Positions 2,436 to 63,347 of a stretch of DNA of 64,000 bases are shown piece after piece (the stretch's first letter is position 1; each line of letters opens with the position of its first letter). This stretch comes from Verrucomicrobiota bacterium (lineage in GTDB: Bacteria > Verrucomicrobiota > Verrucomicrobiia > Limisphaerales > SXTU01). Both the position numbers and the translations under genes were made by a program. Location of the stretch: assembly GCA_039796295.1 (NCBI GenBank), contig JBDKJY010000005.1, forward strand, positions 125,324 to 189,323, given 5' to 3'. Below the pieces are notes generated by a model. The model was not told where the DNA came from and searched no databases. It worked only from the letters and a program-made list of their open reading frames with translations.

Positions 2436-2460
2436 TCCACACCACTCTCCTGCTCATCCT

Positions 2461-9447: not shown

Positions 9448-9453
9448 TCCAGC

Positions 9454-9696
9454 ATGACGACGATTACCACGCACGAAGCCAAGACCCACCTCTCCCGCTA
9501 TCTCGCCGAGGTGGAGCTGGGGAAGGAATACGTGATCGCGCGCGGCAAGAAGGCGGTGGCGCGGCTTGTGCCCGTGAAGCCCGCCAAGCAGAAGCCGCGA
9601 CCGAAGGTGGGCGAAACAATGGACGCGCCGTTCCCGATTTCCGACTCGGCCTTCGCGGCATTGGCTGAATCCGAACTCAAAGAATGGGGCTTGTGA
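9454..9696 (+). CDS. type II antitoxin, Phd/YefM-like
   Basis: 80 aa. The N-terminus MTTITTHEAKTHLSRYLAEVELGKEYVIARGKKAVARLVP is typical of this family. It overlaps the downstream PIN gene. Confidence 0.85.
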   Translation: MTTITTHEAKTHLSRYLAEVELGKEYVIARGKKAVARLVPVKPAKQKPRPKVGETMDAPFPISDSAFAALAESELKEWGL

Positions 9697-10079: not shown

Positions 10080-10091
10080 CCTGAACGAATT

Positions 10092-11426: not shown

Positions 11427-11561
11427 GGGCTCCGAGCACACCAGTCGGCTTGCAGTCGCGGGAAGCAACGAGCAAGTTTTTCCCGTTCCCGGAATTCCTG
11501 CCGTCGTCGAACAAAACTTGTCCGTTACGTTCGCCCGGGCTTATGGAAATACCCTCCAGAC

Positions 11562-13003: not shown

Positions 13004-13060
13004 TGATTTCACTTTCTCCGCTGCACCAGGACGAAACTCGAACCCCTACCCGACCATCCC

Positions 13061-14320: not shown

Positions 14321-14356
14321 GGAGGAGGAAGCACAACTCAATCACCAACTGCCCGC

Positions 14357-40707: not shown

Positions 40708-42242
40708 ACCTTGGATCCCTAATTCCCGCTGGCGTGGTGCTCGCGCTGGTGTGGCTTCAATTGTTCAACCAACTGCGCTCCGACTGGGCGATCAATCCGC
40801 AGTATGCCTTTGGGTTCGCTGTGCCGCCGCTCGCGCTGGCGTTACTCTGGCGACGCTGGCACCTGCGCCCCGCGCCTGCGCCGGGTGGGTGGAACGCGCT
40901 GGCGTGGCTCAGCGGAGCGCCGCTGCTGCTGCTGCCCATCCGGTTGATTGAGGAGGCGAATCCGGAGTGGCGGTTGGTGCTCTGGGGGCACGCGCTGCTT
41001 TTGACCGGGTTCACCCTCGCACTGTTGCAGCACGCTGGCGGCACGGCGTGGCGACGGCACTTTGCGCTTCCCATCTTGTTCCTGCTCGTCTCGGTGCCTT
41101 GGCCGATGATGTTGGAGCAGGCGGTCATTCAGAACCTCATGCGCGGCGTGGCGATGGTGACGGTGGAACTGGCGGGCTTGGCGGACATCTCGGCGCTGCG
41201 GCACGGCAATCTCATCGAGATCAGCGCCGGCCTCGTGGGCGTGGACGAGGCGTGCAGCGGCGTGCGCTCGGTCCAGACCACGCTGATGGTCTCGCTGTTC
41301 CTCGGCGAACTCTACGCCTTCAACGCGTGGCGGCGCGGCGCGCTCGTGGCGGCGGGGATTCTGGTGGCGCTGCCGGCGAACGTGGGTCGCACCTTCTTCC
41401 TCGTGTGGGTCGCAGCACGGCAGGGCTTCGAAGCGATGCACCGGGCGCACGACGGCGCGGGCATGGTGGTCATCTCGCTCGTCCTCCCGGTGCTTTGGGG
41501 CGTGGCGTTGCTGCTTCGACGCGGGTGGAAGCCGGGTTTGGTGAGACCTCCCGCGGTTGGTGTGTCCCCGCAGATTCTGAATTGGAAACTGTCGGCGGTC
41601 CTGGTGGGCCTAGTGGTATTCGCCGAGGCGGGCACGGAGGCGTGGTATCGAGCCCACGAAGGTGGCGCGGTGGCAAATGCCCGCTGGGCGATCGCTTGGC
41701 CGACGAATCAAAACGGCTTCGGCGAGTTGGAAATCAGTGACACCGCCCGTGCCACCCTGCGGTGTGACGTGGGACGCGGGGTGAGCTGGACGGACGCACG
41801 GGCCAGCCAGTGGCAGATGTTTTTCCTGCGGTGGGAGCCGGGTAAGAACTCGGCGCAGCTTGCCAAAGGCCATACGCCGGACATCTGCCTGCCGGGCACC
41901 GGCCACAAATTGCGCGCCGAGCACGAGCGCCTGCGGATAGCCATCCACGGGCTGGACCTGACGTTCCGGCACTACGAATTCGCATCGGGCGCACGCACGC
42001 TTTTTGTCTTCTACTGCCTTTGGGAGGACCGGCAGGCCACACCCGGCAGCGACGCGGGCGAAGACGGCACCCAGAGGAGTCGCCTCGAAGCGGTGCGCGC
42101 GGGCCGGCGTAACCTCGGTCAGCAAGTGCTCGAACTCGCCGTGGACGGCCCGGTTACACCGGAGGAATCAATCGCTGCGTTGCGCGAACAGTTGGGCTTG
42201 CTGATCGCGCGCGAGGCGCACGCAACGCGAGTTCCGAAGTAA
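40704..42242 (+). CDS. exosortase fused to EpsI-family domain
   Basis: ATGA overlap start. Polytopic N-terminal half with VDEACSGVRS (catalytic Cys), PANVGRTFFLVW (Arg) and HDGAGMVV (His). C-terminal half after an extra TM: ...GHTPDICLPGTGHKL..., EpsI-like. Confidence 0.85.
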   Translation: MNLGSLIPAGVVLALVWLQLFNQLRSDWAINPQYAFGFAVPPLALALLWRRWHLRPAPAPGGWNALAWLSGAPLLLLPIRLIEEANPEWRLVLWGHALLLTGFTLALLQHAGGTAWRRHFALPILFLLVSVPWPMMLEQAVIQNLMRGVAMVTVELAGLADISALRHGNLIEISAGLVGVDEACSGVRSVQTTLMVSLFLGELYAFNAWRRGALVAAGILVALPANVGRTFFLVWVAARQGFEAMHRAHDGAGMVVISLVLPVLWGVALLLRRGWKPGLVRPPAVGVSPQILNWKLSAVLVGLVVFAEAGTEAWYRAHEGGAVANARWAIAWPTNQNGFGELEISDTARATLRCDVGRGVSWTDARASQWQMFFLRWEPGKNSAQLAKGHTPDICLPGTGHKLRAEHERLRIAIHGLDLTFRHYEFASGARTLFVFYCLWEDRQATPGSDAGEDGTQRSRLEAVRAGRRNLGQQVLELAVDGPVTPEESIAALREQLGLLIAREAHATRVPK

Positions 42243-45848: not shown

Positions 45849-48179
45849 TTATTTCGCGGCGGCTCGTAACACGGTCTCGTCGTAACGCAACCAACTGGCC
45901 GCCGCCTCGCGCCACTCGCGTTGCGCCGCATGGAGCCGGAAGCGCAGGTAGTGGAGATACGCGGGGGCATTCGGCCGGGCGACGCAGGCGGCGAGGACTT
46001 GGGCGGCGGCGGCGAGTTCCCCGGCTTGTTCGTGCCGCGTCGCCAGCAGGAACACCGCACCGTAGTCGGCGGAGTTGAGTTCGATCCGGCGACGCAGCGC
46101 GGGGATGGGTTCGAACGATTCGAGCTGGGGAAGTTTCGGCGGCTGGAGCCAGCGCGCGATGAGTTCGCACGCCGCCTCGTGCTGCTCTGAGCGCATCTGC
46201 ACGCGGGCCAGCGCGGGCCAGGCGCAGGCCAACTGCTCAGGGTGAGCCGCGATGAATGCCGGAAGCTGGTCGCGCTCCGCGTGCTCGGCCCAGAGGCGGA
46301 AGAGGAGTTTGCGCTGGGCTTCGGACCAGGCATCAAGCGGGTCGCGCAGCACGCGTTGAAGCATCTCGGTGAACAGCACGGGCGGGGCGTCCCGCAGATA
46401 GCGCAACTGCGTGGCGGGCTGGCGCGACGCCGGGGCGAGCAGCGCGCGGATGAGGCCGGGGTCGTTACGGCAGACGTTGAAGACGTGGTCAAACATCGCC
46501 TCGGTGAAGCCGCCGCGCCGGAACACTTCTTCCAAGGCCAGCGCGGTCTGCTGCGGCCAGCCGTGGTCCCACCAGTAACGTGCTTCGAGCAGCGGCAGGT
46601 CGGGTGCGTTGGGCTCCAGCGCGCGGGCGCGGGAGAAGTCGATCACGGCTTCGTTCACTTCACCGCGGCTGGCGAGGGTGACGAACGCGCGTTGGAAGTA
46701 GGGCCGCCAGTCCAGCGGGGTGAGCGCGAGCGCCTCGTCGCACAGTTGGTGCGCGCGGGGGTAATCGCGGACTTTCGTGGCGGCGTTGAAACGGTCGTCG
46801 AGCCGTCGGCGCTGCATCGTGCCGGGGAAGTTCAGGTTGAAGGTCGGCCCCAGCCAAGCTGCGAAGAGCACCAAGCTGAGGGCAGCCAAACCGATGCGCC
46901 ATCCGAGCGAGCGGGAATACTTGTCGGTTTCGGGCGGGCGCGGTTGGCACGCCGCGAGGCCCAGCAGCACCGGCCAGACCGCGCCCATGCGGTGGGCGTT
47001 CATGTCCACAAACCCGTGCAGCCACAGGCAAACTCCGGTCACGCCCGCCGCCAGCATGATCGGGCGCTCGGCTTGTCCGCCTTGCCCGACGGCGCGCCAG
47101 ACGCACCAAAACAGCAGCGCCCACGCGAGTGGCACAGCGAGCCAGCCCAACTCGGCGGCGAGGGCCACCCAGTCGCCTTCAGGATGGAGCGCGCGCTTCA
47201 TGTTCCAGGAAGCCTCGCGGTAGAAGGGAAACACGGCGTCGAAGTTGCCTGCGCCCACGCCGACGAACGACGCGGTGCGGACCAGTTGCAGGGCGTCCTT
47301 TTGGATGAGCACGCGGTAGTCGGAGAACGCGGTTTCCGGCACGTCGCCGAAGCGCTTCAATGCGGGCCCGCCAAAGATGAGAAACAGCACGCCCGCCAGC
47401 GCCACCGCGAGGCCGAGCTTTGCGGCTTCACGCGGCGTGAACTGCTTGGTCGCCACACACGCAACCATCCACGCCAACGGGCCGCCCAGCAGGATCAGGA
47501 TGCCGCTGCGGGAGCGGTTGCAAATCAGCGCCGCGCCCAGCACGAGGAAAGCCCCGAGCCACAACGCGGTGCGGCCCGGGAGCTGCATTTGATGCGACTT
47601 GCGGAAGGCGAGGCAGAAGCAGAACAGCGCGGCGGTGCCGAAGACGAACCCGGTTTCGTTGTAGTTGGGGCACGGTCCGAACGGGATGTTCGCCGGCCAG
47701 AACGGAGGCCTCCAGCCGTGCCAAAACGAGAGCAGCGAAGCCACGGCCAGCGCGGTGATGCAGGCACAGTAGAGGCCGATGATTTGCGCGCGGCGCAGCG
47801 TCCACGAGCGGGTGAAGAGGTAGTAACCCCAGAGCAGGTTCGTCAGCAGGACGAGGAGGGCTTCCAGCGTCATCCAAGGTTGCAAGGTGACGCGCGCGGA
47901 TAACTCCAGGTCCAGCGCTTCTTCTAAACGGTCCTTCACGGCTAAGCCGCCGAGCCACGCGCTGGGCAAGAAGGCACTCCCGACCAAGATCACGAGGAGG
48001 ACGGCGAGGCCGATGATGGGTAAGGGCACGCGGGCCGCTGCGCGCCGCGTGTCCAAGGCCATGAGCAGCGTGGCCGCAAAGAGGAGGGGAACCTGCGTGG
48101 GGAACTCCACCGCGCCCGCCGCCGCTGGGGCCAGCGCACTTACGGCCACCAGCCAACGGTCCAATCCTGCCGGACTCAA
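45849..48179 (-). CDS. O-antigen ligase/polymerase (Wzy_C) family membrane protein fused to C-terminal TPR domain
   Basis: TTG start. Polytopic N-terminal ~450 aa with NRSRSGILILLGG and HPEGDWVALAAELGW motifs. C-terminal ~300 aa of helical repeats. Confidence 0.75.
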   Translation of the reverse strand: MSPAGLDRWLVAVSALAPAAAGAVEFPTQVPLLFAATLLMALDTRRAAARVPLPIIGLAVLLVILVGSAFLPSAWLGGLAVKDRLEEALDLELSARVTLQPWMTLEALLVLLTNLLWGYYLFTRSWTLRRAQIIGLYCACITALAVASLLSFWHGWRPPFWPANIPFGPCPNYNETGFVFGTAALFCFCLAFRKSHQMQLPGRTALWLGAFLVLGAALICNRSRSGILILLGGPLAWMVACVATKQFTPREAAKLGLAVALAGVLFLIFGGPALKRFGDVPETAFSDYRVLIQKDALQLVRTASFVGVGAGNFDAVFPFYREASWNMKRALHPEGDWVALAAELGWLAVPLAWALLFWCVWRAVGQGGQAERPIMLAAGVTGVCLWLHGFVDMNAHRMGAVWPVLLGLAACQPRPPETDKYSRSLGWRIGLAALSLVLFAAWLGPTFNLNFPGTMQRRRLDDRFNAATKVRDYPRAHQLCDEALALTPLDWRPYFQRAFVTLASRGEVNEAVIDFSRARALEPNAPDLPLLEARYWWDHGWPQQTALALEEVFRRGGFTEAMFDHVFNVCRNDPGLIRALLAPASRQPATQLRYLRDAPPVLFTEMLQRVLRDPLDAWSEAQRKLLFRLWAEHAERDQLPAFIAAHPEQLACAWPALARVQMRSEQHEAACELIARWLQPPKLPQLESFEPIPALRRRIELNSADYGAVFLLATRHEQAGELAAAAQVLAACVARPNAPAYLHYLRFRLHAAQREWREAAASWLRYDETVLRAAAK

Positions 48180-49875: not shown

Positions 49876-50697
49876 ATGATGAAGAAAATTAGCACGCTGG
49901 TCGTAGCCGGTGCCGGGGCCATGCTGATGGCTCAGAGCGCTCAAGCCACGCTGGCTTACAGCAACGGTGACATGCTCCTCGGCTTCCGTAAGGACAGCCA
50001 GAGCAGCAACTTGGAAGTCAACCTGGGTTCCGTGAACCAGATCATCAACATCTTGGGCACGGGCCAGACCCTGTCCTTCAGCAGCAAGTTCACCTCCGGT
50101 GACATCACGGCGGGCGTGGGCACGGCCGGTTCCGGCTCCCTGAACAGCGCCATCTGGTCTGTCAGCGCGGGGATCAACGCCCTCAACCAGAGCGGCATCA
50201 CCGCTCCCAACCGGACCCTCTGGCTCACCAGCGGTCGCGGCGTGAACAGCGCGGACATCAACACGCAGACCACGCCCTTGCAGCGGGCTTCGCTCAGCAC
50301 CCAGGGCAACACGGTTTCGCCCCTGCTGACCATCGGCACCGGCTTCGCTGCGGCCACGGGCAATGCCGGCAGCACCACCGCGGCGGTAGTCGCCAACGGG
50401 GCTAACTCCTATGCTGACAACATCGGCAGCGGCAACTTTGGCACCTTCGACAGCAACATCGAAAACACCCTCGGCGCTTCCTTCACCAGCGGCGGCTCCG
50501 TCGCCCGCTCGGATTACTACCAGCTCACCCCCGGCAGTGGCAATGGCACCTACCTCGGCTACTTCGAACTGAGCCAGGGCGGCGCGCTGTCCTTCGTCGC
50601 CGTGCCCGAGTCCGGCACGTTCGCGGCCTCCATCGGTGCTGGCCTCATGGCCCTCGCCCTCCTGCGCGCTCACCGCAAGAGCCTCGCCTCCGCCTAA
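49876..50697 (+). CDS. secreted protein with PEP-CTERM-like (VPESG) C-terminal sorting signal
   Basis: Signal peptide MMKKISTLVVAGAGAMLMAQSAQA. C-terminus VAVPESGTFAASIGAGLMALALLRAHRKSLASA. The N-terminal ~230 aa are homologous to 61987-63291. Confidence 0.75.
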   Translation: MMKKISTLVVAGAGAMLMAQSAQATLAYSNGDMLLGFRKDSQSSNLEVNLGSVNQIINILGTGQTLSFSSKFTSGDITAGVGTAGSGSLNSAIWSVSAGINALNQSGITAPNRTLWLTSGRGVNSADINTQTTPLQRASLSTQGNTVSPLLTIGTGFAAATGNAGSTTAAVVANGANSYADNIGSGNFGTFDSNIENTLGASFTSGGSVARSDYYQLTPGSGNGTYLGYFELSQGGALSFVAVPESGTFAASIGAGLMALALLRAHRKSLASA

Positions 50698-50774: not shown

Positions 50775-52004
50775 ATGAAACTCAATAAAAACATCCTCAC
50801 TGCTGCTGCGAGCCTGATGCTCGCCGCGTCGGCCCACGCCGACTTCAGCATCTACATCACCGGCTCCACGGCATTCCGTGGCGCGGCTTATACGAGCATC
50901 CTCTCGCTCTACGATGCTGCCGGCCTGAACGTGAACGCCTCCGCCGGCACGGCGAAGCCCTTCACCACCATCGCGAACCCCGAGGCCCCCGGCAAACCCG
51001 TCACGGCTGGCACGGTCACCACCTACAGCGGTGCCAACGCCATGGCCTTTAGCGGCACGATGCCGGCCTTCGGGTCCCAGATCGTGACCATCTATTGCCT
51101 CTGGAGCGGCTCCGTGGAAGGCATCCGTGACGTGACGCTGAACACTTCCCTGGACTTCCTCAGCACGGCTGTCAGCCAGACCAGCGCGTTCGCCGATGCC
51201 GGTCAGACCACCACGGCGGACTTCGCGTTCTCGGACGTGTTCCAAGCCTCGACGACCTACAAGACCCCCACGCTCCAGGGCACGAAGGTCGGCGTCATCC
51301 CGTTCGCGCTCGTGAAGAACCAGGGCGCTCCCGCTAACCTCACGAACATCTCGCACCAGCAGGCCATCACCCTGTTCGCTAACGGCGTGGTTTCCTTGCC
51401 GTTCATCACCGGTGACCTCACGGGTGACACCAACAAGGTGGCGTGCTTGATCGGCCGCTACAACGGCTCCGGCACCCGCTACGCGGTCTTCGCCGACACC
51501 GGCTACGGCGCGCTGAAGAGCTCCGTGAACTACAAGTATAGCGCCAACGCCGGTCCCGGCAGCACCCCGGCCTTCACCGCTGTGACGCCTGACCCGAACG
51601 TCGGTCACACCAGCGGCAGCAGTGTCAAGACCGACGTCAGCTTCGCCATCAGCACCGCGCTGAACGCGGCGGGTGACACTTATGTCACCGGCTACGCCAT
51701 CGGCTACCTCGGCGTCAAAGACGCCTACGGCGTGACCGGCAACGGCTCTGGTGCGTTGAACCTCACGTATGACGGTGCTGCTTACAGCCCCGCTAACGTC
51801 TACAACGGCACCTACACCATGTGGAGCTACCAGCACATCTACAACAAGTCCGGCCTCAGCACGGACAAGACCACGTTCAAGGCTAACCTCGCGGCGGCCA
51901 TCCCGAACAACCTGGGCAGCGGCACCGGCGCGAGCGGTCTCAAGCTCACCGATATGTCCGTCCAGCGTTCCGTGGACGGCGGCCCCATCGGCACCCAGTA
52001 TTAA
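50775..52004 (+). CDS. secreted PstS-like (PBP_like_2-type) substrate-binding-fold protein
   Basis: Signal peptide. ITGSTAFRGAAY, WSGSVEGIRDV, FAFSDV, LTNISHQQAITLFANG...RYNGSGTRYAVF match the periplasmic binding protein type-2 pattern (LT..Q...IF.G...R...SGT...F). Confidence 0.65.
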   Translation: MKLNKNILTAAASLMLAASAHADFSIYITGSTAFRGAAYTSILSLYDAAGLNVNASAGTAKPFTTIANPEAPGKPVTAGTVTTYSGANAMAFSGTMPAFGSQIVTIYCLWSGSVEGIRDVTLNTSLDFLSTAVSQTSAFADAGQTTTADFAFSDVFQASTTYKTPTLQGTKVGVIPFALVKNQGAPANLTNISHQQAITLFANGVVSLPFITGDLTGDTNKVACLIGRYNGSGTRYAVFADTGYGALKSSVNYKYSANAGPGSTPAFTAVTPDPNVGHTSGSSVKTDVSFAISTALNAAGDTYVTGYAIGYLGVKDAYGVTGNGSGALNLTYDGAAYSPANVYNGTYTMWSYQHIYNKSGLSTDKTTFKANLAAAIPNNLGSGTGASGLKLTDMSVQRSVDGGPIGTQY

Positions 52005-52031
52005 GCTAACCGCTTAAAACTTCTGACTCAG

Positions 52032-52063
52032 ACAGCGCGGGCTTCGGCCCGCGCTGTTTTTTT
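52032..52063 (+). terminator. rho-independent terminator
   Basis: 11-bp stem ACAGCGCGGGC / GCCCGCGCTGT with a UUCG loop, followed by T7. Confidence 0.85.
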
Positions 52064-52413
52064 GTGCCCTGTTCCAACCCGTGAACCGCCCACCGCGAGA
52101 GCGGGAGCCACGCCTGTTCAGTCCAGCGGATGGTGCGCGGACGCCTACATCCGCAAGTCGGCGGCGCAGTTGTTACCGATCCGGCCCGCCCGGAGTATTC
52201 CCACGGTTCGTATGGACAGGTGACATTCTGCCAAGGAAAGCCATTCGCGCGAAGACCGAGTGGGAAAATCAAGGGTCCGTAACCGAGCGCGGGGTTCCGT
52301 AACGGATCGCCAGGGAACGTCGCTTGGCGATGGCGCTCACCGGTTGTTTGATGGCGACGCGACTCATACCCAGTCGCTCCCAACCACATCCTGCCCCCGA
52401 CTCCGCTGCCCAT

Positions 52414-55400
52414 ATGAAAAACCTGTTCCTGAATGCTGCCCTGATCCGCACCCTGCGCTGGTGCGGCGCATTGACCGTGTGCCTGCTCGCGTTGCAACCA
52501 GCCGCCAGCGTGGCCGGCCCGTTCTCGGCCGGAAACCTGGCGGTCATCCAAGGCGAAGGTTCCGCCAGCAACACCAACGCGACGGTGATTGAGCTGAACA
52601 CCACGACAGCCAGCCAGTCCGCCGTGCAATCCATCGCCATTGATGGGACGACCATGCCCGGCTCAATGCGGTTCAGTGCCTCGGCCTCGAGCACCATGTA
52701 TTTGGCGCTGAACAATGACGGCACGTTGCTCGTGTTCAACGGCGCGAACACGAACCACGGCGCGGCAAATGTGAACACTTACCTGCGGCGCGGCATCGGC
52801 TCCCTGAACCCGCTGGGCACCTTCGGAATCCAGACGACTTACGATGGCACCAGCGGCAACCAGACGCGCGGGGCCTCCAGCGTGGACAACGTCAACTGGC
52901 TCATCGGCGACCAGGGCGGCATCTACACGAACGGTGCGACGGCCGCCAGCGGCACCGGGAACATGCGCGGGATCAAGTCTTTTGGCGGCACGGTCTATGG
53001 CTTTCAAGCCTCCGCCTCGTTGCCACCGGTGGGCACCGTTACCGCCACGGCCTACACCGCGTTGACGGGCCTGGCGAACGGCAACGCGAACAAGACGGAC
53101 TTTTACCTGATCTCTTCCGGCAGCAACGGCTCCACTTACGATGTCCTCTACGTCGTCGAGGCCACGTCGGCGACGGTGGGCGTGATTTCCAAGTATTCGC
53201 TCGTGACCGGCTCATGGACGGCGAACGGAACTTACGCGACGACCTTCGGTGGGTTCGGTTTGGCGGCTGCGAAGAATGGCAGCGGTGCGAATCTTTACGT
53301 GACGACCGGCTCCGGGGCCACCTCGGCCAACAGCGTGATCAAATTGGCGGACACCGCTGGCTACAACTCCACGATCAGCATCACGACCGGCAACAACGTG
53401 ACGCTCTTCACCGCGGCAACGGGCAAGCTGCTCAAGGGCATCACCTTCGCGCCCAACGGCATTGTCACGAGCGGCACGCTCTCGGCGGTGAGCACGACCT
53501 ACGGCACGGCGTCGAGCGCCGCATCGTTCACGGCCTCCGGCGCGGGTCTCACGGCGGACCTCGTGGTGACGGCGCCCAGTGGGTTTGAAGTCTCCACCAC
53601 GATTGGCTCCGGTTACGGCGCGAGCGTCAGCCTGACGCCGACCAGCGGGACGGTGTCCGCCACCACGGTTTACGTGCGCTTGGCCGCGACCACGGCGGCC
53701 GGCTCCTACTCCGGCAACGTCGTCTGCACCAGCACGGGCGTGACGACGCAGAACGTGGCCATGCCGTCCAGCACCGTGAGCGCCAAGGGCCTGACCATCA
53801 CGGGCCTGAGCGGGGTGAGCCGGAACTACAACGGCACGACGGCGGCGACCCTGACCGGCACGGCGGCCTTGAGCGGCGTGCTGGTCGGCGATGTCAGCAA
53901 CGTGACACTCGGCGGTTCGCCGACGGCGACGTTCGCCACGGCGGGTGCGGGCACCAGCAAGGCAATCACGGTGACGGGATATTCCATTAGCGGTTCGGCG
54001 GCGGCGAATTACAGCCTCGCCCAGCCCACCGGTTTGATCGCCGACATCAACCAAACCGCGCTGACCATTACGGCGAACAACGTGTCGAAGGCGCTCGGTG
54101 CCACGCTCACCAGCGGTTCCGGCTCCACGGCCTTCACCAGCGCGGGTCTGGTGAACTCGGAGACCATCGGCACGGTGACGATCACCTATGGCAGCGGCGC
54201 GGCGGCGGGGGATTCCGTGGGCACTTACACCGGCTCGGTCACGCCGTCGGCGGCGACGGGCGGGACGTTTACCGCAGCGAACTACGCCATTACCTACACA
54301 GCGGGCGACATCAACGTGAGCGCCAGCCCGGCGATCAACGTCAGCGGCACCCTGAGCGCGGTGAACGCCACCTACGGCAGCCCGTCGCCGACGCCCACGA
54401 GCTTCACCGCTTCCGGCGGCAACCTGACGGGGAACCTCACCGTCACGGCCCCGGCGAACTTTGAAGTCTCTACCACGCTCGGCTCCGGTTACGGCGCGAG
54501 CCTGAACCTCACGGCCTCCGGCGGCACGGTGGCGAACACCACGATCTACGTGCGCCTCGCGGCGGGACCGGTGGTGGGAAATTATTCGGGCAACGTGTCC
54601 GTGTCCGGCGGCGGCGCGACCACGCAAACTGTGGCGATTCCTTCCAGCTCGGTGTCGGCGAAGGGACTGACCATCACCGGCCTCAGCGGCGTGAACAAAG
54701 TTTACGACCGCAACAACACGGCGACCCTCACGGGCACGGCGGCGTTGAGCGGCGTGGTGAGCGGCGATGAAAGCAACGTGACGCTCGCGGGCACGCCCAG
54801 CGCGACGTTTGCCACCATCACGGTCGGCACGATCAAGGCGATCACCGTCACGGGCTACTCGCTCACCGGCTCGGCGGCGGCGCAATACACTCTCGCGCAA
54901 CCCGCCGGACTCACGGCGGACATCACGGCCAAGGCGCTCACCATCACCAGCGCGGCGGTGACGACGAAGGCTTACGACGGCACCACGGCAGCCACGATCA
55001 CCGGCACGCTTTCCGGCGTAGTCTCGCCCGACGCGGTTACGCTGAACGGCACGGGCACCTTCGCCAGCGCTGGCCCTGGCGTGGGTTTGGCGGTGACTTC
55101 GACCAGCACGCTCGGCGGGGCTGATGCCGGCAATTATTCGCTCACGCAGCCCACCGGCCTGACGGGCACCATCACGGGCAGCGCGAACGCCGATCTCTCC
55201 GCGCTAACCGTGAACGGCGGCCAGCTCTGGCTCTCACCGAACTTCGCGGGCAGCACGACGAACTACACGACCTACCCGGACCACGCGACCAACAGCATCA
55301 CGATCACGCCGACCGTGGCGGACGCGAATGCGACGGTGAAGGTCAACGGCACCACCGTCACCTCCGGCACGGCCAGTGCGGCCATCTCGATCAACCACGG

Positions 55401-58400
55401 CACGAACATCATCACCGTGGTGGTGACCGCGCAGGACGCGGTCACGACGAAGACGAACACGATCATCGCCATCCGGTCGGCGACCTCGCTCCTCCCGGGG
55501 GCGATTGCCTTCACGGGCTTCGATGCCGATGGCAGCGATGACATCGCCTTCGTCGCGCTGACGAACATCCCAGCCAACACGGTGATTCACTTCGGCGACA
55601 ACGCGTGGAACGGCTCCGCCATTGGTTCCGGCGGGGCCTTCGCGGGCTTCACCGAAAGCGAGTGGGTGTGGATTGCTCCCGCAGGCGGCCTCGCGGCGGG
55701 CACCGTGGTGGCGATCAATAACTTGGCCGCCACCCCGACCGTCACCGCAGGCACGATGGAGTTTGTGGACACCGCGAACCGTGGTCTGAGCACCACGGCG
55801 GAAACCATCTATGCCTTCCAGGGCTCCTCGCACGTCCCGACGGTTTTCTTGGCGGGCATTTCCTCGGAGACCGGCACGCCTTTCCAAAACACCGGCCTTT
55901 CCGGTGGCGCGGCGGTGACCTTGAGCAGCAGCTCGGACGGCGCCCGCTACAAAGGCGCGCGCACGGGGCAGACGACGTTCGCCGCTTGCCTCGCGCTGAT
56001 TGGCGACGTGGCGAACAACTGGGATGACATCGCCAATGGTGACGGCACGACGTATCTGCCGTTCAGCAGCACGGCGTTCACGGCCACGGCCTTTGACGCC
56101 AACGTGAGCATCAACGATGTGTCGGTCACCGAAGGCGACGCTGGCACCAAGACGCTCACGTTCACCGTCACGCGCTCCGGCAACGCCGGGGCGTTCACCC
56201 TCGACTACGCCACCGCCAACGGCACCGCGACGACGGCAAACAGCGATTACGCCGCCACGAACGGGACGCTGAACTTCACCGCAGCAGGCAGCCTCACGCT
56301 GACGGTGGACGTCACGCTCAACGGTGACACCACGGCGGAAGGCGACGAAACGTTCGTAGTCAATCTGTCCAACGTCATCAACTCGCTCGGCACCGCGACG
56401 GTCACGAAGTCGCAGGGCACCGGCACGATCCTCAACGACGACCCCGTCGCACCGAGCATCAGCGTGCAGCCCGCCAGCGTGACCATCGCGACCGGCTCGG
56501 CCACGACCTTGAGCATCACCGCCTCGGGCACGCCGACGCCGACGTATCAGTGGTATCTCGGCGCGAGCGGCAACACGGCCAGTCCGATCTCCGGGGCGAC
56601 CTCCGCCACCTACACCACGGCGGTGCTGCTGGCCAACACCAGCTACTGGGTGCGGGTGTCGAACAGCGCCGGCACGGTGGACAGCACCACGGCGGCGGTC
56701 ACGGTGAGTTACGCCACGCCCTACGCGAGCACGAACCTTGCAGTCCTCGCCCCCAACACTGCGGCGTGGAATCCGGCGGGCGTCACGGTGAATGGCACGA
56801 CCTTCATCAACCTCGGCCTGCAAGGCATGGGCCGCGTGCCCGCCAGCGCGATTGATTCGGCCACGGGTGAATCCCTCGGCTCGATCTCCGACATGCAGAT
56901 CAGCGGCTGGAAGAAGAACACGGACGGCAGCTACAGCGGCACGCTGAACACGCTCCCCGACCGCGGCTATAACAACGGCGCGACGTTCTCGAACTACCGG
57001 GCGCGCCTCAACAACTTCGCCTTCACGTTCACGCCTTACACGAACTCGACGCCCACCAACGCGCAGAACCAGATCGCGCTGACCTTCACCGGCTCGACCG
57101 CCTTCACCTACAACAATGGCGCGGGCCAGAAGTTTACGACGGGCCTCCCCGCTGACGGCACCGCGTCGCTCTTCGGCACCACGGTGCCCGTGGCCGCCGG
57201 TAACACGACGCAGAGCGATGGCACGGTGGCCAACCGCCTGACGCTCGATTCCGAAGGCCTCATCCTCGACCAACGCGCGGGCAAGAGCGGCGCGGGCTGG
57301 ATCGGCGACGAATACGGCGGCTCGATCTACCACTTCAACAGCTCGAAGCAGATTGACGGGCAACTCATCCTGCCCGCCGCGCTGATCCCGCACTCGCCCG
57401 TCGGCACGGTTAATTTCAATGGCACGCCGGTCAACGGTCGCCGCGACAACCAAGGCATGGAAGGCATTGCGCAAAGTCCGGACGGCACGCGGCTCTTCGC
57501 GCTGATGCAGAGCGCCACGATCCAGGACACTGGCTCGGGCAATCAGGGCCGTTATAACACCCGCCTGCTCGTCTATGACATCTCCTCCACCGACACGCCG
57601 ACCGATCCGATCGCGCAGTATGTGATCCAGCTCCCGCGCATCGACACCACCGGCTCCACAAGCAACGGCACCACGGTGGACAAGGTCGGCGCGCAAAGCT
57701 CCATCGTCGCGTTGAGCACCAATCAAATCCTGATCCTCTCCCGCGATGGCAACGGGCGCGGCTCCAGCGGCTCGCCGGTCTTCAAGTCCGTCCTGCTCGC
57801 CGACCTCTCGTCCGCCTCGAACATCGACGGCAGCTACGACGCCGAAGGCGCAGCGGTCGCGCCGAGTGGCACGCTCACGGCCGGCGTGACGCCGCTGGCG
57901 TGGACGGAAGCGCTGAACATGGTGGGCAAGCTCGGCGCAACCACGGCCGAAGTGGAGAAGTTCGGCTTGAATCTCAACACCGCCCCCGGCGACACCAATA
58001 CCATCAGCGAGAAGTGGGAGGCGCTCACGTTGGTCTCCGCGAATGACGCAGCGAACCCGAACGACTACTTCCTCTTCGTTGGCAACGACAACGACTTCAT
58101 CACCGGCACCGGCAAATATCTGGACGCGAGCGGCACGGTGCAGAGCTACAACGCCGGCCTTGAGAACGACTCCATCGTGCTTGTCTGGCGCGTGCGCATG
58201 ACCAGCTCGTTCAACCAGCCGCCGTTCGTCGCCAACGCGATCGCGGATCAGACGTCCGTGGCTACGGCGGCGTTCTCCTTCGCCTTTGCGGCGAACACGT
58301 TTGCTGATCCGGAAAGCCAGACGCTGACCTACACGGCCACCAAGGCGGACGACACCGCCCTGCCCTCCTGGCTCACGTTCAACTCCAGCACGCGCACCTT

Positions 58401-60297
58401 CTCCGGCACGCCGACCTCGGGCGACGCGGGCACGCTCACGGTCAAGGTGACGGCCACGGACAACGGCTCGCCGAATCTCTTTGGCAGCGCGACCTTCACC
58501 ATCACGACCGCCGTGGACAGCACGTCGCCGACGATCAATCTCAGCGCACCTTCCGCTAGCATCACGGCGGGCGGCTCCGTGACCTACACGGTGACGTATG
58601 CGGACGCGAACTTCAGCGCTAGCACCCTGGCGAACGGCAATATCACGCTGAACAAGACCGGGACCGCCAACGGCTCCGTAGCGGTGACCGGTTCGGGCAC
58701 GACGCGCACGGTGACCCTCAGCAGCATCACCGGCGATGGCACGATTGGCATCTCCGTCGCCGCCGCCACGGCCAGCGACACGGCGGGCAACACCGCTCCT
58801 GCCGCCGGGCCGAGCACGACCTTCACGGTGGATAACACGGCGCCCACGGTGGGCATCGGTTCGCCTTCGGCCAGCAGCACCGCCAGCGGCCCGATCACCT
58901 ACACGGTCACGTATGCGGATGCGAACTTCAGCGCGAGCACGCTCACCACCGGCAACATCACGCTGAACACGACCGGCACCGCGAACGGCAGCGTGGCGGT
59001 GACCGGTTCGGGCACGACGCGCACGGTGACCCTCAGCAGCATCACCGGCACCGGCACGCTGGGCATCTCGCTGGCGGCGGGGACGGCCAGCGACACGGCG
59101 GGGAACACCGCGCTGGCGGCAGGGCCGAGCACGACCTTCACGGTCACGCCGGCGGTGGCCGACCTGAACATCTACCTCACCGGCTCCACGGCCTTCCGGG
59201 CGGCGGCGTATGCGGGCATCGCGGCGCTTTACAACACCGGGTTCAGCGTGAACGCCTCCGCCAGTGCGGCGGCGCCGTTCACCACCATCGCGAACGCGCA
59301 GGCCCCTAACCGGCCCAGCGCGGACAGCACCTTCGAAGGGGCGAACTTCATGACGTTCAGCGGCACGATGACCATGTTCGGCGCGCAGGTCGTCGTCATC
59401 CGGTGCAACTGGAGCGGTTCGGTGGCGGGCATCCGGGATGTGGCGCAGCAGAACAGCCTGTCCTTCCTGAGCACGGCCCTGAGCCAGACCTCGGCCTTCA
59501 CGGACAACGGCACCACCGGCGTGCCGGACTTCTGCTTCTCGGACGTGGGCCAGACCGCGACGCTCTACAAGTCCCCCACGCTCCAGAACGTGACGTGCGC
59601 CGTGCTGCCCTACGTGTTCGTGAAGAATCAAGGCGCGCCCGCCAACCTCACGAACCTCCTCCACCAGCAGGCGATCACGTTGTTCGCTAATGGCGTGGTG
59701 CCGCTGCCCCTCCTCACGGGTGACATCACGGGTGACACCAACAAAGTGGCGTGTTTGATCGGTGGCTACTCCGGTTCCGGCACTCGCCTCGCGGTCTTTG
59801 CCGACACCGGCTACGGCGCGCTGAAGAACTCTGTGAATTACAAGTATAGCGCCACCGCAAACGCCGGTTCCCCGGCCTTTACCCTCGTGTCCCCGGACCC
59901 GAACGTCGGGCACACCAGCGGCGGCTCGGTGAAGAGCGACCTGAGCAACGCCATCAGCACCGCGCTGAACGCGGCGGGTGACACGTATGTCACCGGCTAC
60001 GCCCTCGGTTACCTCGGCATCAAAGATGCCGCTGGGGTCACCGGCAATAGTTCCGGCGCGTTGAACCTGGCTTACGACGGCGCGACCTATAGCGCGGCCA
60101 ACGTGAAGAGCGGCACCTACTCCCTCTGGAGTTACGAGCGGCTTTACCACCGGTCCGGCCTCAGCGGCGACCTCACCACGTTCCGGGGCTTCCTGACGAA
60201 CGCGGTGATCAGCAACTTGGGCACGTCCGCCCTCCCGCTCTCCACTATGTCCGTGGAGCGCGCGGTGGACGGTGGCCCGATCGGCACCAAGTATTAA
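52414..60297 (+). CDS. giant (2627 aa) multi-domain surface adhesin-like protein with C-terminal PstS-like domain
   Basis: ATG 52414 gives the signal peptide MKNLFLNAALIRTLRWCGALTVCLLALQPAASVAG. Approximate domains: YDG/MBG-type repeats 53.4-55.2 kb, cadherin-like beta-sandwich 55.2-55.5 kb, Calx-beta 56.10-56.45 kb, Ig-like 56.45-56.70 kb, phytase-like esterase beta-propeller 56.9-58.2 kb, dystroglycan/cadherin-like Ig 58.2-58.5 kb, 2 x 105-aa Ig-like repeats 58.5-59.15 kb, PstS-like domain 59.16-60.29 kb. Confidence 0.85.
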   Translation: MKNLFLNAALIRTLRWCGALTVCLLALQPAASVAGPFSAGNLAVIQGEGSASNTNATVIELNTTTASQSAVQSIAIDGTTMPGSMRFSASASSTMYLALNNDGTLLVFNGANTNHGAANVNTYLRRGIGSLNPLGTFGIQTTYDGTSGNQTRGASSVDNVNWLIGDQGGIYTNGATAASGTGNMRGIKSFGGTVYGFQASASLPPVGTVTATAYTALTGLANGNANKTDFYLISSGSNGSTYDVLYVVEATSATVGVISKYSLVTGSWTANGTYATTFGGFGLAAAKNGSGANLYVTTGSGATSANSVIKLADTAGYNSTISITTGNNVTLFTAATGKLLKGITFAPNGIVTSGTLSAVSTTYGTASSAASFTASGAGLTADLVVTAPSGFEVSTTIGSGYGASVSLTPTSGTVSATTVYVRLAATTAAGSYSGNVVCTSTGVTTQNVAMPSSTVSAKGLTITGLSGVSRNYNGTTAATLTGTAALSGVLVGDVSNVTLGGSPTATFATAGAGTSKAITVTGYSISGSAAANYSLAQPTGLIADINQTALTITANNVSKALGATLTSGSGSTAFTSAGLVNSETIGTVTITYGSGAAAGDSVGTYTGSVTPSAATGGTFTAANYAITYTAGDINVSASPAINVSGTLSAVNATYGSPSPTPTSFTASGGNLTGNLTVTAPANFEVSTTLGSGYGASLNLTASGGTVANTTIYVRLAAGPVVGNYSGNVSVSGGGATTQTVAIPSSSVSAKGLTITGLSGVNKVYDRNNTATLTGTAALSGVVSGDESNVTLAGTPSATFATITVGTIKAITVTGYSLTGSAAAQYTLAQPAGLTADITAKALTITSAAVTTKAYDGTTAATITGTLSGVVSPDAVTLNGTGTFASAGPGVGLAVTSTSTLGGADAGNYSLTQPTGLTGTITGSANADLSALTVNGGQLWLSPNFAGSTTNYTTYPDHATNSITITPTVADANATVKVNGTTVTSGTASAAISINHGTNIITVVVTAQDAVTTKTNTIIAIRSATSLLPGAIAFTGFDADGSDDIAFVALTNIPANTVIHFGDNAWNGSAIGSGGAFAGFTESEWVWIAPAGGLAAGTVVAINNLAATPTVTAGTMEFVDTANRGLSTTAETIYAFQGSSHVPTVFLAGISSETGTPFQNTGLSGGAAVTLSSSSDGARYKGARTGQTTFAACLALIGDVANNWDDIANGDGTTYLPFSSTAFTATAFDANVSINDVSVTEGDAGTKTLTFTVTRSGNAGAFTLDYATANGTATTANSDYAATNGTLNFTAAGSLTLTVDVTLNGDTTAEGDETFVVNLSNVINSLGTATVTKSQGTGTILNDDPVAPSISVQPASVTIATGSATTLSITASGTPTPTYQWYLGASGNTASPISGATSATYTTAVLLANTSYWVRVSNSAGTVDSTTAAVTVSYATPYASTNLAVLAPNTAAWNPAGVTVNGTTFINLGLQGMGRVPASAIDSATGESLGSISDMQISGWKKNTDGSYSGTLNTLPDRGYNNGATFSNYRARLNNFAFTFTPYTNSTPTNAQNQIALTFTGSTAFTYNNGAGQKFTTGLPADGTASLFGTTVPVAAGNTTQSDGTVANRLTLDSEGLILDQRAGKSGAGWIGDEYGGSIYHFNSSKQIDGQLILPAALIPHSPVGTVNFNGTPVNGRRDNQGMEGIAQSPDGTRLFALMQSATIQDTGSGNQGRYNTRLLVYDISSTDTPTDPIAQYVIQLPRIDTTGSTSNGTTVDKVGAQSSIVALSTNQILILSRDGNGRGSSGSPVFKSVLLADLSSASNIDGSYDAEGAAVAPSGTLTAGVTPLAWTEALNMVGKLGATTAEVEKFGLNLNTAPGDTNTISEKWEALTLVSANDAANPNDYFLFVGNDNDFITGTGKYLDASGTVQSYNAGLENDSIVLVWRVRMTSSFNQPPFVANAIADQTSVATAAFSFAFAANTFADPESQTLTYTATKADDTALPSWLTFNSSTRTFSGTPTSGDAGTLTVKVTATDNGSPNLFGSATFTITTAVDSTSPTINLSAPSASITAGGSVTYTVTYADANFSASTLANGNITLNKTGTANGSVAVTGSGTTRTVTLSSITGDGTIGISVAAATASDTAGNTAPAAGPSTTFTVDNTAPTVGIGSPSASSTASGPITYTVTYADANFSASTLTTGNITLNTTGTANGSVAVTGSGTTRTVTLSSITGTGTLGISLAAGTASDTAGNTALAAGPSTTFTVTPAVADLNIYLTGSTAFRAAAYAGIAALYNTGFSVNASASAAAPFTTIANAQAPNRPSADSTFEGANFMTFSGTMTMFGAQVVVIRCNWSGSVAGIRDVAQQNSLSFLSTALSQTSAFTDNGTTGVPDFCFSDVGQTATLYKSPTLQNVTCAVLPYVFVKNQGAPANLTNLLHQQAITLFANGVVPLPLLTGDITGDTNKVACLIGGYSGSGTRLAVFADTGYGALKNSVNYKYSATANAGSPAFTLVSPDPNVGHTSGGSVKSDLSNAISTALNAAGDTYVTGYALGYLGIKDAAGVTGNSSGALNLAYDGATYSAANVKSGTYSLWSYERLYHRSGLSGDLTTFRGFLTNAVISNLGTSALPLSTMSVERAVDGGPIGTKY
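58522..59151 (+). repeat. intragenic tandem repeat, 2 x 315 bp (105 aa units)
   Basis: acctacacggtgacgtatgcggacgcgaacttcagcgc at 58582 recurs at 58897. The units are near-identical (TYTVTYADANFSASTL..GNITLN.TGTANGSVAVTGSGTTRTVTLSSITG). Confidence 0.9.
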
Positions 60298-60323
60298 GCG
60301 ACTGGCTTAAACCTCTGACTCAA

Positions 60324-60355
60324 ACAGCGCGGGCCTCGGCTCGCGCTGTTTTTTT
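60324..60355 (+). terminator. rho-independent terminator (paralog of 52032-52063)
   Basis: Stem 60324-60334 / 60339-60349 with one G-U pair, loop CTCG, then T7. The flanking sequence ...cttaaa.ctctgactca.acagcgcggg...tttttttgtgccc is shared with the first terminator. Confidence 0.85.
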
Positions 60356-60420
60356 GTGCCCGGACCTGGCCGGGGAAGCGACGGTTTGGGGAGCCCAGCC
60401 GGAAGGATGCAGTGGACCCG

Positions 60421-61986: not shown

Positions 61987-63291
61987 TTACGGCACGCGGG
62001 TGGCTTGCAACACGTAGAAGCGCGTCGCATCGGGGTTGGTGTCGGTCAGGGTCTGCGGGCTGCCGTTGCCGTTGACGCTGCCCGCCGCGACGGGCCAAGT
62101 GCTGATGGGGGAGTTAAGTCCAGCGGCGTTGGTGTAACGGAGGGTGTAGCTGACGCCCGCGTAGGAGGGGAACGTGATGGTGGAGGTCTGGCTCACCCGC
62201 GTGATGCCGTTGGCGCTGATGAGCGGGAGGAAGGCGTCCACGATGGTGCCAGTGGCGGGGTTGGTGCCCAAGGTGCCGTTCACCGGGCTGGAGAGCAGGA
62301 CGGTGAAGTTGACGGAGTTCTTGTAAGTCGTGCGGCCCAGCGCGGGCACGGTGATGGTGAGGTTTGTGATGCCGGCGATGAAGTTGAGCGTGCCGCTGGT
62401 GGTGGTGTAATCCGTGCCGGCCACGGCGGTGCCGTTCTGCGTGGCGTAGTTGACGGAGACGGCGGAGGCGAAGTTGGTGGAGAGGGTGACGGTGAAGACG
62501 GCGTTGGAGGTGCCATTGGTGGCGATCTGCACGGTGGTGTTGGCGATGGAAATAGTCGGCGGGGTGGCGACCGCGCCGCCCGCCGCAGTGAAGGTCATGG
62601 TCCCATTGGCGAACAGGTCGAAGTAACCGAGGAGCGTCGGCGTGCCCAAAGGCTTGAGCTGATACAGGTCGGAGCGGACGAAGGCCGCGCCGGTGAAGGG
62701 CGCGGGCGTGAGGTTTTCGATGCTGCCTTGGAAGCCGCCGAAGTCGCCGTTATCGCCGATGAACGCGTTGTAGCTCTGGGGATTCCCATTCGGAATGATA
62801 ACGGCGGTGGCGGTGTTGTTGGCTCCGGGAGCGATGCTGCTGCTGTAGGCGGCGGCATTGTCGCCGACGGAGAGGGCGGGGGTAACGGTGTTGCCTTGGA
62901 CGCTGATGGAGGCGGTGCTCCAGGGGGTGCTCTGGACGTTGGGATCGAGGCGCGGGGCCGTGAGCCAGAGGGTGTTCCGGGGGGCGTTGGGATCGCCGGC
63001 CGCGTTCATGCCGCCGGAAACCGACCAGTTGACGTTGGCGTAGGAAGCGCCGAACGCGGTGGTGAGCTGGCTGGCGGTGAAGCCTGTGATGGCGAACGTG
63101 CTGCCGGGCGTGGCGCCGTAGTAGAGGGAGGCTTGGCCCAGGTTGACTTCGAGGTTGGAGGTGCCGCCGACCTTGCGGAAGCCCAACATGAGGTCTCGGA
63201 CGTTGTAATTCAGCGGGCCAGCCGTGACTGCGGCCACACTGGTGAGGATGGCGACGGCGACAGAGAGTAAGTTCAGCGAGCGTTTCGACAT
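61987..63291 (-). CDS. secreted protein: N-terminal domain paralogous to 49876-50697, plus Calx-beta-like domain and an unassigned C-terminal domain
   Basis: ATG 63291 gives the signal peptide MSKRSLNLLSVAVAILTSVAAVTAG (alternative TTG at 63315). LMLGFRKVGGTSNLEVNLG aligns with MLLGFRKDSQSSNLEVNLG. VNYATQNGTAVAGTDYTTTSGTLNF is Calx-beta-like. No PEP-CTERM tail. Confidence 0.75.
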   Translation of the reverse strand: MSKRSLNLLSVAVAILTSVAAVTAGPLNYNVRDLMLGFRKVGGTSNLEVNLGQASLYYGATPGSTFAITGFTASQLTTAFGASYANVNWSVSGGMNAAGDPNAPRNTLWLTAPRLDPNVQSTPWSTASISVQGNTVTPALSVGDNAAAYSSSIAPGANNTATAVIIPNGNPQSYNAFIGDNGDFGGFQGSIENLTPAPFTGAAFVRSDLYQLKPLGTPTLLGYFDLFANGTMTFTAAGGAVATPPTISIANTTVQIATNGTSNAVFTVTLSTNFASAVSVNYATQNGTAVAGTDYTTTSGTLNFIAGITNLTITVPALGRTTYKNSVNFTVLLSSPVNGTLGTNPATGTIVDAFLPLISANGITRVSQTSTITFPSYAGVSYTLRYTNAAGLNSPISTWPVAAGSVNGNGSPQTLTDTNPDATRFYVLQATRVP

Positions 63292-63347
63292 AGGATGAAG
63301 GGCAGTCAATTTCAAAAAGAGGGCGTGACTTTAAGGAGGGCAGTCAG

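Follow-up and report, generated by a model that had tools for sequence, protein, structure and literature searches.

In E. coli PstS, bound phosphate is liganded by Thr10, Ser38, Asp56, Arg135, Ser139, Gly140 and Thr141 (PMC6549937). A divergent form of the PstS fold is encoded twice in a 64-kb window (meaning here the whole stretch of DNA analysed) of contig JBDKJY010000005.1 of a freshwater Verrucomicrobiota bacterium. One copy is a stand-alone secreted protein, and the other is the C-terminal module of a giant secreted repeat protein, where it may serve for docking at the cell envelope. The family has in common with described PstS/PBP_like_2 proteins (E. coli 1IXH; S. pneumoniae PstS1 4EXL and 4LAT; L. 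brevis 4ECF) the fold, profile homology and a Sec signal peptide, and its stand-alone members keep putative equivalents of all seven residues named above. However, its members are ~130 residues longer, fall below Pfam and TIGRFAM thresholds and have an extra invariant Arg in the family motif GSTAFR. Their genes are not with pstCAB, but beside PEP-CTERM-type and ShlB/two-partner secretion (TPS) genes. Also unlike PstS, one of the window's copies forms the C-terminal end of a protein of 2627 aa and has Gly in place of the Arg135 equivalent.

Non-transport relatives of PstS include DING proteins (PfluDING, 4F1V), the PstS surface appendages of P. aeruginosa and the M. tuberculosis adhesin PstS-1; PfluDING and PstS-1 (7DM1) are among the Foldseek matches of the stand-alone protein. 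In these too a PstS fold is found outside an ATP-binding cassette (ABC) import operon and is linked to the surface or to adhesion. However, these proteins are free-standing and have a functional phosphate site, whereas the window has the fold fused to a giant repeat protein, with the site altered. The principle of a binding-protein fold inside a multidomain protein is familiar from fusions of solute-binding proteins to ABC permeases, from Venus-flytrap domains of the BvgS type and from LysR effector domains (LysR/OxyR effector domains are weaker Foldseek matches). Those keep ligand sensing, whereas the module of the giant loses its ligand site and its host is an adhesin-like fibre. In position, it fills the same terminal slot as the type IX secretion system (T9SS) C-terminal domains (PF18962/PF13585) of homologous giants and so invites comparison with these and with PEP-CTERM and LPXTG signals. 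It is, however, 380 aa long compared to 30–100 aa for such sorting or anchor domains, is without a PEP motif, transmembrane (TM) helix, basic tail or LPXTG, comes from a soluble binding protein and implies no processing enzyme.

A divergent PstS subfamily, and a binding-protein fold co-opted into a multidomain surface protein, are each of a known kind. No description of the family, of its gene cassette or of the fused architecture was found in Pfam, NCBIfam or the searchable literature, and literature searches for PstS with PEP-CTERM and Verrucomicrobia, or for PstS-type C-terminal anchors, gave nothing relevant. The locus ties together a widespread PstS-like family, PEP-CTERM partners and Omp85/ShlB-type genes, and it bears on how Verrucomicrobiota attach very large surface proteins and on the role of PEP-CTERM proteins after exosortase processing.

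Two copies of a PstS-like module

The stand-alone gene (50775–52004, + strand; 409 aa) specifies a Sec signal peptide (50775–50840), with cleavage between AHA and D, and a mature chain from 50841; its product matches 'hypothetical protein RL514_918 [Verrucomicrobiota bacterium]' at 100% identity. The giant gene (52414–60297, + strand) encodes 2627 aa from its ATG, in an open reading frame (ORF) that opens at TTG 52324. The fused module is the last 378 aa (residues 2250–2627 of the giant) plus the stop codon (59161–60297, + strand; coding part 59161–60294). BLASTP of the stand-alone protein with the C-terminus of the giant gives 68% identity (265/390, E 7e-178), in agreement with the original prediction, made by eye, of a collinear match of about two-thirds identity; its coordinates and descriptions of both copies are likewise correct. 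The protein match runs collinearly from the A-x-A-D at the signal peptide cleavage site to the last residue, and the fused module begins exactly at the equivalent of the start of the mature chain.

The DNA of the two copies is alike from the codons for Ala-Asp, at the cleavage site, onwards; beyond both stop codons the likeness extends over a 13-bp hairpin, T7 and GTGCCC. The 3′ flanks (52005–52070 and 60298–60363) are similar, as had been proposed, with identity at 54 of 67 positions, while synonymous sites of the two ORFs are only ~60% identical (pS 0.40, dS 0.57, dN 0.23). The stand-alone gene has its terminator at 52030–52066 (+ strand), with a 13-bp stem, TTCG loop (hairpin 52030–52059) and T7; that of the giant gene, at 60322–60358 (+ strand), has the paralogous stem with one G.U pair, a CTCG loop (hairpin 60322–60351), T7 and GTGCCC. 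Both G+C-rich hairpins are of ~−27 kcal/mol with z ~−4 and are the top two terminator-like sites of the region. The likeness is not that of a terminator generic to the genome: in the window the stop-proximal spacer plus 5′ arm occurs nowhere but at these two sites (chance expectation 0), and the same is true of the hairpin pattern. [A match of 52003–52062 to the Rfam small RNA SorY (29 bits compared to a gathering threshold of 111, E 0.015), on the stand-alone gene's terminator, is treated as chance, most likely reflecting the resemblance of any hairpin followed by a U-run.] An assembly chimera is ruled out as the source of the fusion, the copies being 32% diverged at the protein level and the junction recurring in independent assemblies (P0189/L006 and L016).

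The AlphaFold2 (AF2) model is of the stand-alone copy, to which the fused copy is 68% identical, and it has a two-lobe type II binding-protein fold (pLDDT 93.5, pTM 0.89). When compared to the PDB with Foldseek, ranks 1–36 are all phosphate-binding proteins (best E 7e-12). TM-scores, normalised to the target, are 0.79–0.80, and since values up to 0.80 are reached against targets of ~260 aa, the stand-alone protein has a PstS core that carries ~130 extra residues. A profile of 80 family members matches S. pneumoniae PstS1 (4exl) with E 6e-13, the motifs SDVF and R..GSG[ST]R being aligned, and the L. brevis protein (4ecf) with E 2.8e-10. The domain search that had been suggested as a check is negative in one respect and positive in another: neither copy's module has a match at E <= 0.1 in Pfam (PF12849 included) and the TIGR02136 (PstS) scores, 17.7 and 17.2 bits, are local and below the cutoff of 206.6, but the family profile is significant against PstS of known structure. 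With model, Foldseek ranks and profile in agreement, the PstS-like fold predicted for both copies stands, and both belong to an uncharacterised, divergent, Verrucomicrobiota-wide branch of the PstS phosphate-binding-protein superfamily. It numbers 838 clusters at 50% identity (E <= 1e-3), or 504 at E <= 1e-10, and the named sources are nearly all metagenome-assembled genomes (MAGs) of Verrucomicrobiota, with a few evidently wrong labels. [Some MAG records with the gene cassette described below (L012/L013, L028, L014–L016, P0011) are titled 'Akkermansia muciniphila' or 'Proteobacteria bacterium' and are probably mislabelled.]

The invariant or near-invariant positions of the family are T32, S113, S153-D154, R228 and S232-G233-T234 (stand-alone numbering, used for residues throughout). 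By motif and profile alignment, rather than by superposition on a ligand complex, T32, S113, D154, R228, S232, G233 and T234 are the equivalents of the seven PstS ligands, and the stand-alone copy has all of them. Segment 222–238 aligns to residues 129–145 of E. coli PstS, pairing R228-S232-G233-T234 with R135-S139-G140-T141; this match, weak when taken alone, agrees with the 4exl profile alignment. Asp56 of PstS excludes fully ionised sulfate. The invariance of its equivalent points to a protonated oxyanion like phosphate, not sulfate, as the ancestral ligand, and so argues against the sulfate or uronate that the original prediction had offered beside phosphate. To judge from these residues, the stand-alone proteins probably bind phosphate or a close oxyanion. 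At the envelope they would act together with a PEP-CTERM partner.

The fused module: selection, pocket and putative docking

The giant consists of a signal peptide, a conserved N-domain of ~350 aa, three YDG/MBG domains, a Cadherin-like domain (55195–55464), a Calx-beta domain (56119–56433), an Ig_7 domain (56443–56706), a Phytase-like beta-propeller (PF13449, 56938–58098, E 1.3e-28), tandem Ig-like repeats (Ig_7/Ig_3) and then the module, which follows without a linker. A signal peptide with a long Ig-like stalk is the architecture of fibrillar adhesins and adhesion, on the strength of the domains, is a putative function. Pfam detects in the giant neither a T9SS C-terminal domain (PF18962, PF13585) nor a TPS domain (PF05860). 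Both it and the stand-alone protein lack a PEP-CTERM tail and end ...VDGGPIGT[KQ]Y, and such a tail is found in 0 of 120 homologues of the giant. [Homology of its N-domain to the domain of the PEP-CTERM partner introduced below was considered and rejected (BLASTP E 0.11; hhalign probability 0.25%).]

Homologous giants keep the N-domain and YDG stalk, yet have at least 10 alternative C-terminal domains, and in Bacteroidota homologues of the adhesin part the slot is occupied by T9SS C-terminal domains (PF18962, PF13585). The original prediction had a binding-protein fold sitting where surface proteins normally carry their terminal domain, and this comparison bears it out. Close homologues of the adhesin part (P0192, P0214, P0218, P0224, P0210 and others) have PhoD, 5′-nucleotidase C-terminal, choice-of-anchor I and phytase-like domains, which suggests that the giant family includes surface phosphoesterases of freshwater Verrucomicrobiota. 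A separate observation is that otherwise unrelated giant C-termini (P0195–P0197, P0204, P0217–P0220, P0223, P0241, P0247 and others) have a similar last strand, for example ...KRMMRLKVANP, ...KFFRMNVNTAP, ...KFFQLELVDAP and ...MFFQARINP; the strand is possibly a signal, so far overlooked, by which the phylum sorts or anchors such proteins.

The fusion at first seemed unique to the window, as in searches with the module only the matches listed were all <= 563 aa, but searches with the whole giant, of GTDB genomes and of representatives exhaustively overturned this. The whole-giant search gave P0189 (3222 aa, module 2838–3222), which is the closest homologue of the giant (80% identical over 78% of its length), and P0190 (1727 aa, module 1347–1727). 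The GTDB scan gave L016, a giant truncated by its contig at >= 1594 aa, and the exhaustive search P0349 (810 aa) and P0399 (737 aa), in which cadherin/Ig repeats precede the module. In all of these the module is at the extreme C-terminus, so the recurrence that had been proposed as a check is found. Nevertheless the architecture is rare: it is present in 2 of 80 species-representative loci and in 6 proteins overall. A metagenome scan with a single fused module yielded one distant relative only. The window, L016 and P0189 have a common junction, ...GPSTTFTV, 5–6 residues and then IY[LI]TGSTAFR, and in P0190 the module directly follows a Calx-beta domain, as expected from an internal deletion of ~900 residues that includes the phytase-like domain. 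The nearest relative of P0349/P0399 is the stand-alone P0119 (42–46% identity), and they represent an independent, second fusion lineage.

Comparison of codons shows that the fused module is under purifying selection. For the window and P0190 modules dN/dS is 0.23 at dS ~1.1, to be compared with 0.28–0.41 for pairs of stand-alone orthologues and 0.16–0.20 for the adhesin part. Of the 37 positions best conserved in the family, 34 are intact in the window's fused copy, the exceptions being the start Met, which cannot exist in a fused copy, F177Y and R228G. The fused copy has changed somewhat faster than its stand-alone counterpart, with 46–60 vs 26–38 lineage-specific changes (p from 0.0006 to 0.27, according to the outgroup chosen).

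The changes at the pocket recur. In 373 non-redundant stand-alone proteins residue 228 is Arg in 371; it is Gly in the fused copy of the window (residue 2451 of the giant; GGC, 59764–59766; the window's stand-alone codon is CGC, 51456–51458) and in P0190, and Ala in L016. Residue 177, Phe in 364, is Tyr in all three (59611 in the window). Position 156 is variable in stand-alone proteins (Phe in 198) and is Gly in the window (59548), Ala in P0190 and Asn in L016. T234 (Thr in 361) is still Thr in the window, but Val in P0190 and Gly in L016; of the three modules with an altered pocket in this clade, only that of the window itself keeps it. D316 (Asp in 372) is Asp in the window and L016 and His in P0190. 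Both P0349 and P0399 have R228P, F177Y and T234M. Overall, R228 is absent from five of the six fused modules (G, G, A, P, P), the same five have F177Y, and T234 is lost from four. For R228 Fisher's test gives p = 2e-9, a value uncorrected for phylogeny and overstated, as only two or three independent events are involved. All genomes compared are MAGs and single-codon calls such as R228G depend on assembly quality; an error at R228G is, however, unlikely since the loss recurs in three assemblies of the clade. The window's fused copy still has T32, S113, D154, S232, G233, T234, R35 and R235.

Loss of the Arg135 equivalent and F177Y thus recur in two independent fusion lineages, with loss of the Thr141 equivalent in the second lineage also, and because of these changes we think that the fused module is probably no longer a phosphate receptor. 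As a natural experiment, the fold has been captured by adhesins twice and the same ligand residues have been lost twice.

What the module may do instead is suggested by the company kept by stand-alone genes. Immediately upstream of the one in the window is a gene (49876–50697, + strand), termed 'PEPfam', which encodes a secreted protein of 273 aa whose tail is of the PEP-CTERM type (VPESG, TM helix and RAHRK); the product has no Pfam or NCBIfam match. In a survey of 80 loci from GTDB species representatives, a same-strand PEPfam homologue adjoins the stand-alone gene in 72, being upstream in 62 of them, and a PEP-CTERM tail is detectable in 61 of the 72. The reading preferred here, to which a probability of roughly one in three is given, is that the module serves, independently of its pocket, to dock or anchor the giant by its cell-proximal end. 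Purifying selection would have kept it as a folded C-terminal domain with a remodelled canonical oxyanion pocket, and it would hold that end of the giant at the envelope by means of the partner surface that the stand-alone protein also uses. The most plausible docking partner would be the exosortase-processed PEP-CTERM protein next door, or another component of the cassette. By analogy, occupancy of a slot that otherwise has alternative terminal domains, T9SS sorting domains among them, is in keeping with such a function.

Several considerations tell the other way. The P0189 fused module keeps an intact pocket, so pocket loss is not obligatory on fusion, and the genes around the P0399 fusion are unrelated ones, those of the cassette being absent. 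That F177Y arose in both lineages might just as well reflect a new specificity for a small molecule as independence of the pocket, and the C-terminal slot could be that of a distal 'head' rather than an anchor. An AF2 model of the PEPfam partner, from a two-sequence alignment, has a pLDDT of 36. The fused sample is small, six proteins that represent two, perhaps three, independent events.

A broader version of docking is rather doubtful. According to it the PstS-derived module would be a new class of C-terminal envelope-docking domain, and the PEP-CTERM, PstS-like and ShlB barrel cassette a so far undescribed system of surface display in Verrucomicrobiota, with the binding-protein fold coupled, possibly gated by phosphate, to an exosortase-anchored partner; giants that captured the fold would be tethered non-covalently and independently of ligand. 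If this is true, the convergent loss of the Arg135 equivalent is thereby explained.

Not every alternative dispenses with the ligand. It is possible, though rather unlikely, that the module serves phosphorus scavenging, capturing phosphate or a phosphoester for, or from, the phytase-like domain as a carbohydrate-binding module does for a glycosidase. The giant does have the PF13449 domain, homologous giants bear PhoD (PF09423), 5′-nucleotidase C (PF02872) and choice-of-anchor I domains, and the stand-alone family retains the complete PstS phosphate-ligand set. Further, the changes at R228, F156 and T234 in the window's clade are mostly to small residues and might make room in the pocket for a bulkier phosphoester. 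However, P0190 is without the phytase-like domain yet has the module, whose pocket is the most degraded, and a hydrolase domain is absent altogether from P0349 and P0399. Tight binding of phosphate is hard to reconcile with loss of the single cationic ligand, and PF13449 is itself of putative function. Should the module after all do no more than bind phosphate, the fusion would be a modest case of domain shuffling among the surface enzymes with which freshwater bacteria scavenge phosphorus.

The original prediction had the module as a non-covalent anchor or sensor whose inter-lobe oxyanion pocket binds phosphate, sulfate or uronate of the exopolysaccharide (EPS) made by the adjacent locus. That locus, an EPS/exosortase cluster, is immediately upstream: Bac_transf (21077–22552), a chain-length/kinase-like gene (24753–26855), several GT1/GT4 glycosyltransferase genes, an exosortase gene of the EpsH family that closes the cluster (40704–42242, + strand; PF09721, E 1.7e-40) and a Wzy_C/TPR gene (45849–48179). 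Together with the PstS fold, the C-terminal position and the retention of most pocket residues in the window's fused copy (the eight listed above), it makes such binding conceivable, but the idea is now an unlikely one. R228, the sole charged ligand equivalent, is Gly in the window, where F156 is also lost, and is missing from all but one of the fused modules; T234 has gone from P0190 and L016 and D316 from P0190. The invariant Asp56 equivalent makes sulfate improbable. As to the link with EPS, it is one of adjacency only: exosortase/Wzy neighbours are present at just 3 of the 80 loci, those of the closest relatives (L012, L014 and L015), and the conserved unit is the pair of PEPfam and PstS-like genes, not the EPS genes.

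Improbable also is an export or sorting function, in which the stand-alone protein would be cargo or accessory of a ShlB-type (Omp85-family) transporter, or of another route, and the giant would piggy-back to the surface. There is a ShlB-like gene within a few kb in 47 of the 80 loci, often directly downstream, Bacteroidota homologues of the giant employ a C-terminal sorting domain, and the fusion replaces the signal peptide exactly and leaves the module at the extreme C-terminus. Yet what known TpsB transporters recognise is a TPS domain at the N-terminus, and this the giant lacks; the obvious cargo is the product of a separate TPS-domain gene (in 22 of the 80 loci), and no precedent is known for a binding-protein fold of 380 aa as a secretion signal. 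Finally, that read-through or recombination merely left a decaying, roleless domain on the adhesin would fit the rarity of fusions, the lost pocket residues and the faster change of the fused copy, but is very improbable given the dN/dS between fused modules, an ORF intact in four assemblies, the conserved positions retained, survival of the module through the large internal deletion in P0190 and recurrence of the same substitutions in an independent fusion.

History of the fusion and its terminator

The fused module arose when the ORF of an adhesin became attached to a stand-alone gene copy exactly at the signal peptide cleavage site, with the 3′ end and terminator of the latter being kept. 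The fusion is, to judge from comparison of genomes, old: the junction is common to giants of at least three assemblies, and the deletion derivative P0190 keeps the module. In a first neighbour-joining (NJ) tree the fused and stand-alone copies of the window were sisters with 70% bootstrap support. This grouping fell to <1% once the other fused modules were added, when the window module was instead with that of P0190 (98%). By identity, the window module is 68–70% like its neighbour and 65–66% like that of P0190 or L016, and the P0189 module is closest (71%) to the stand-alone protein of its own genome.

The conflict between the 70% and 98% groupings arises because the module is a mosaic. Sliding-window and quartet analyses have nucleotides ~150–450 of the module supporting fused with fused, and the centre and 3′ flank supporting window with window. 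In columns 300–450 sites of the former kind outnumber the latter by 14 to 3 in the P0190 quartet and 11 to 1 in the L016 quartet, whereas in columns 750–900 window-with-window sites prevail by 13 to 2 and 16 to 3 (max-chi2 permutation p = 0.016 and <0.0005 for mosaicism). The pattern is read as that of an old fusion after which fused and free copies within genomes repeatedly underwent gene conversion, and this exchange with the stand-alone copy of the same genome explains the unusually similar 3′ flank.

The terminators point the same way. Among 94 loci, the hairpin pattern occurs only directly 3′ of orthologous stand-alone genes, and because of this the hairpin is taken as an ancestral feature of the stand-alone gene. 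The stem is kept behind stand-alone orthologues elsewhere and in RFSE01 it has a compensatory A-T to C-G change. The CAMAUZ01 and RFSE01 MAGs each hold a stand-alone copy (L012 and L015, respectively) and a fused copy (L013, the same as L006, and L016), and in these two and the window both terminators carry common, genome-specific variants: ACAGCGC...GCGCTGT in the window, ACCGCGC...GCGCGGT, with the compensatory pair change, in RFSE01, and GCAGC...GCTGC with a GCAA loop in CAMAUZ01. Since fused and stand-alone terminators match within each of the three genomes, concerted evolution is indicated. That the end of the ORF and the terminator moved together, as the original prediction had it, is therefore upheld, but the single duplication in this genome that it envisaged is too simple in view of the shared junctions, the mosaic and the concerted evolution.

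The adhesin part may have a history of its own. Window 52503–58508 is 79.6% identical in DNA to L006 2063–8068 (CAMAUZ01), while the flanking Calx-beta gene is 68% and the module 71% identical, and the P0190 version has as neighbours a Rieske gene and the fragment of a transposase (HTH_Tnp_1). The higher identity of the adhesin than of flank and module, together with the transposase fragment, suggests that the adhesin gene moved laterally among related lineages.

The cassette and other genes of the window

PEPfam homologues are ~270–330 aa and without a Pfam domain, and with the PstS-like gene they form a conserved Verrucomicrobiota cassette of which a description was not found; the ShlB-like gene near it in 47 loci is an outer-membrane gene of the ShlB/POTRA_2 type, and the TPS-domain protein in 22 is a giant. 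All five relatives inspected by hand, with PstS-like binding proteins 33–69% identical to that of the window, have the PEP-CTERM homologue directly upstream. A cultured carrier of the cassette exists, Prosthecobacter fluviatilis KACC 12649 (L044). In Prosthecobacter-type loci (L009) the cassette is followed by MotA/ExbB-ExbD genes. No ABC-transporter domain is present among the genes scanned at 39–64 kb of the window or in the gene tables of L001–L011, and pstCAB genes accompany none of the surveyed loci, though at one distant locus porins flank a PBP_like_2 gene that is unrelated.

In L001–L003 the stand-alone gene is directly followed by FkbM-type methyltransferase and Calx-beta genes, the giant gene of ~8.3 kb being extra in the window. 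The corresponding Calx-beta protein of the window (61987–63315, − strand; 442 aa) is part of this conserved neighbourhood and its N-terminal ~245 aa (62566–63315) are homologous to PEPfam. The identity over this ~245-aa N-domain is 44% between the products of 49876–50697 and 61987–63315. The domain also heads proteins of 1700–2100 aa that adjoin PstS-like genes (L034, L056 and L060) and occurs too at L010 10112–11347; from its distribution it behaves as a portable N-terminal domain.

The exosortase at 40704–42242 is presumed to be the processing enzyme of the PEP-CTERM partner. It scores 102.6 bits against TIGR03109 (XrtA), for which the cutoff is 208, and is also below the XrtD cutoff. Only residues 11–270 of its 512 are covered by the EpsH domain, and it could represent a subtype not yet classified, extended at the C-terminus.

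Elsewhere, proteins of ~870–940 aa that combine an AraC-type helix-turn-helix (HTH; PF12833/PF00165) with ShlB are encoded at L001 14692–17373, L006 16060–18681 and L011 5773–8601, directly upstream of TPS-domain genes, and those of L001 and L006 have POTRA_2 as well. The architecture is odd for an outer-membrane transporter and may reflect merger of gene calls or an unrelated N-domain. The left end of the window (31–16843) consists of repeated sets of Planctomycetes/Verrucomicrobia-type genes: DUF1552 (HXXSHH) genes at 31–984, 10092–11426 and 13061–14320, a DUF1501 gene at 3836–5230, and genes for PSCyt/PSD multi-domain cytochrome-like proteins at 5227–9426 and 14357–16843.

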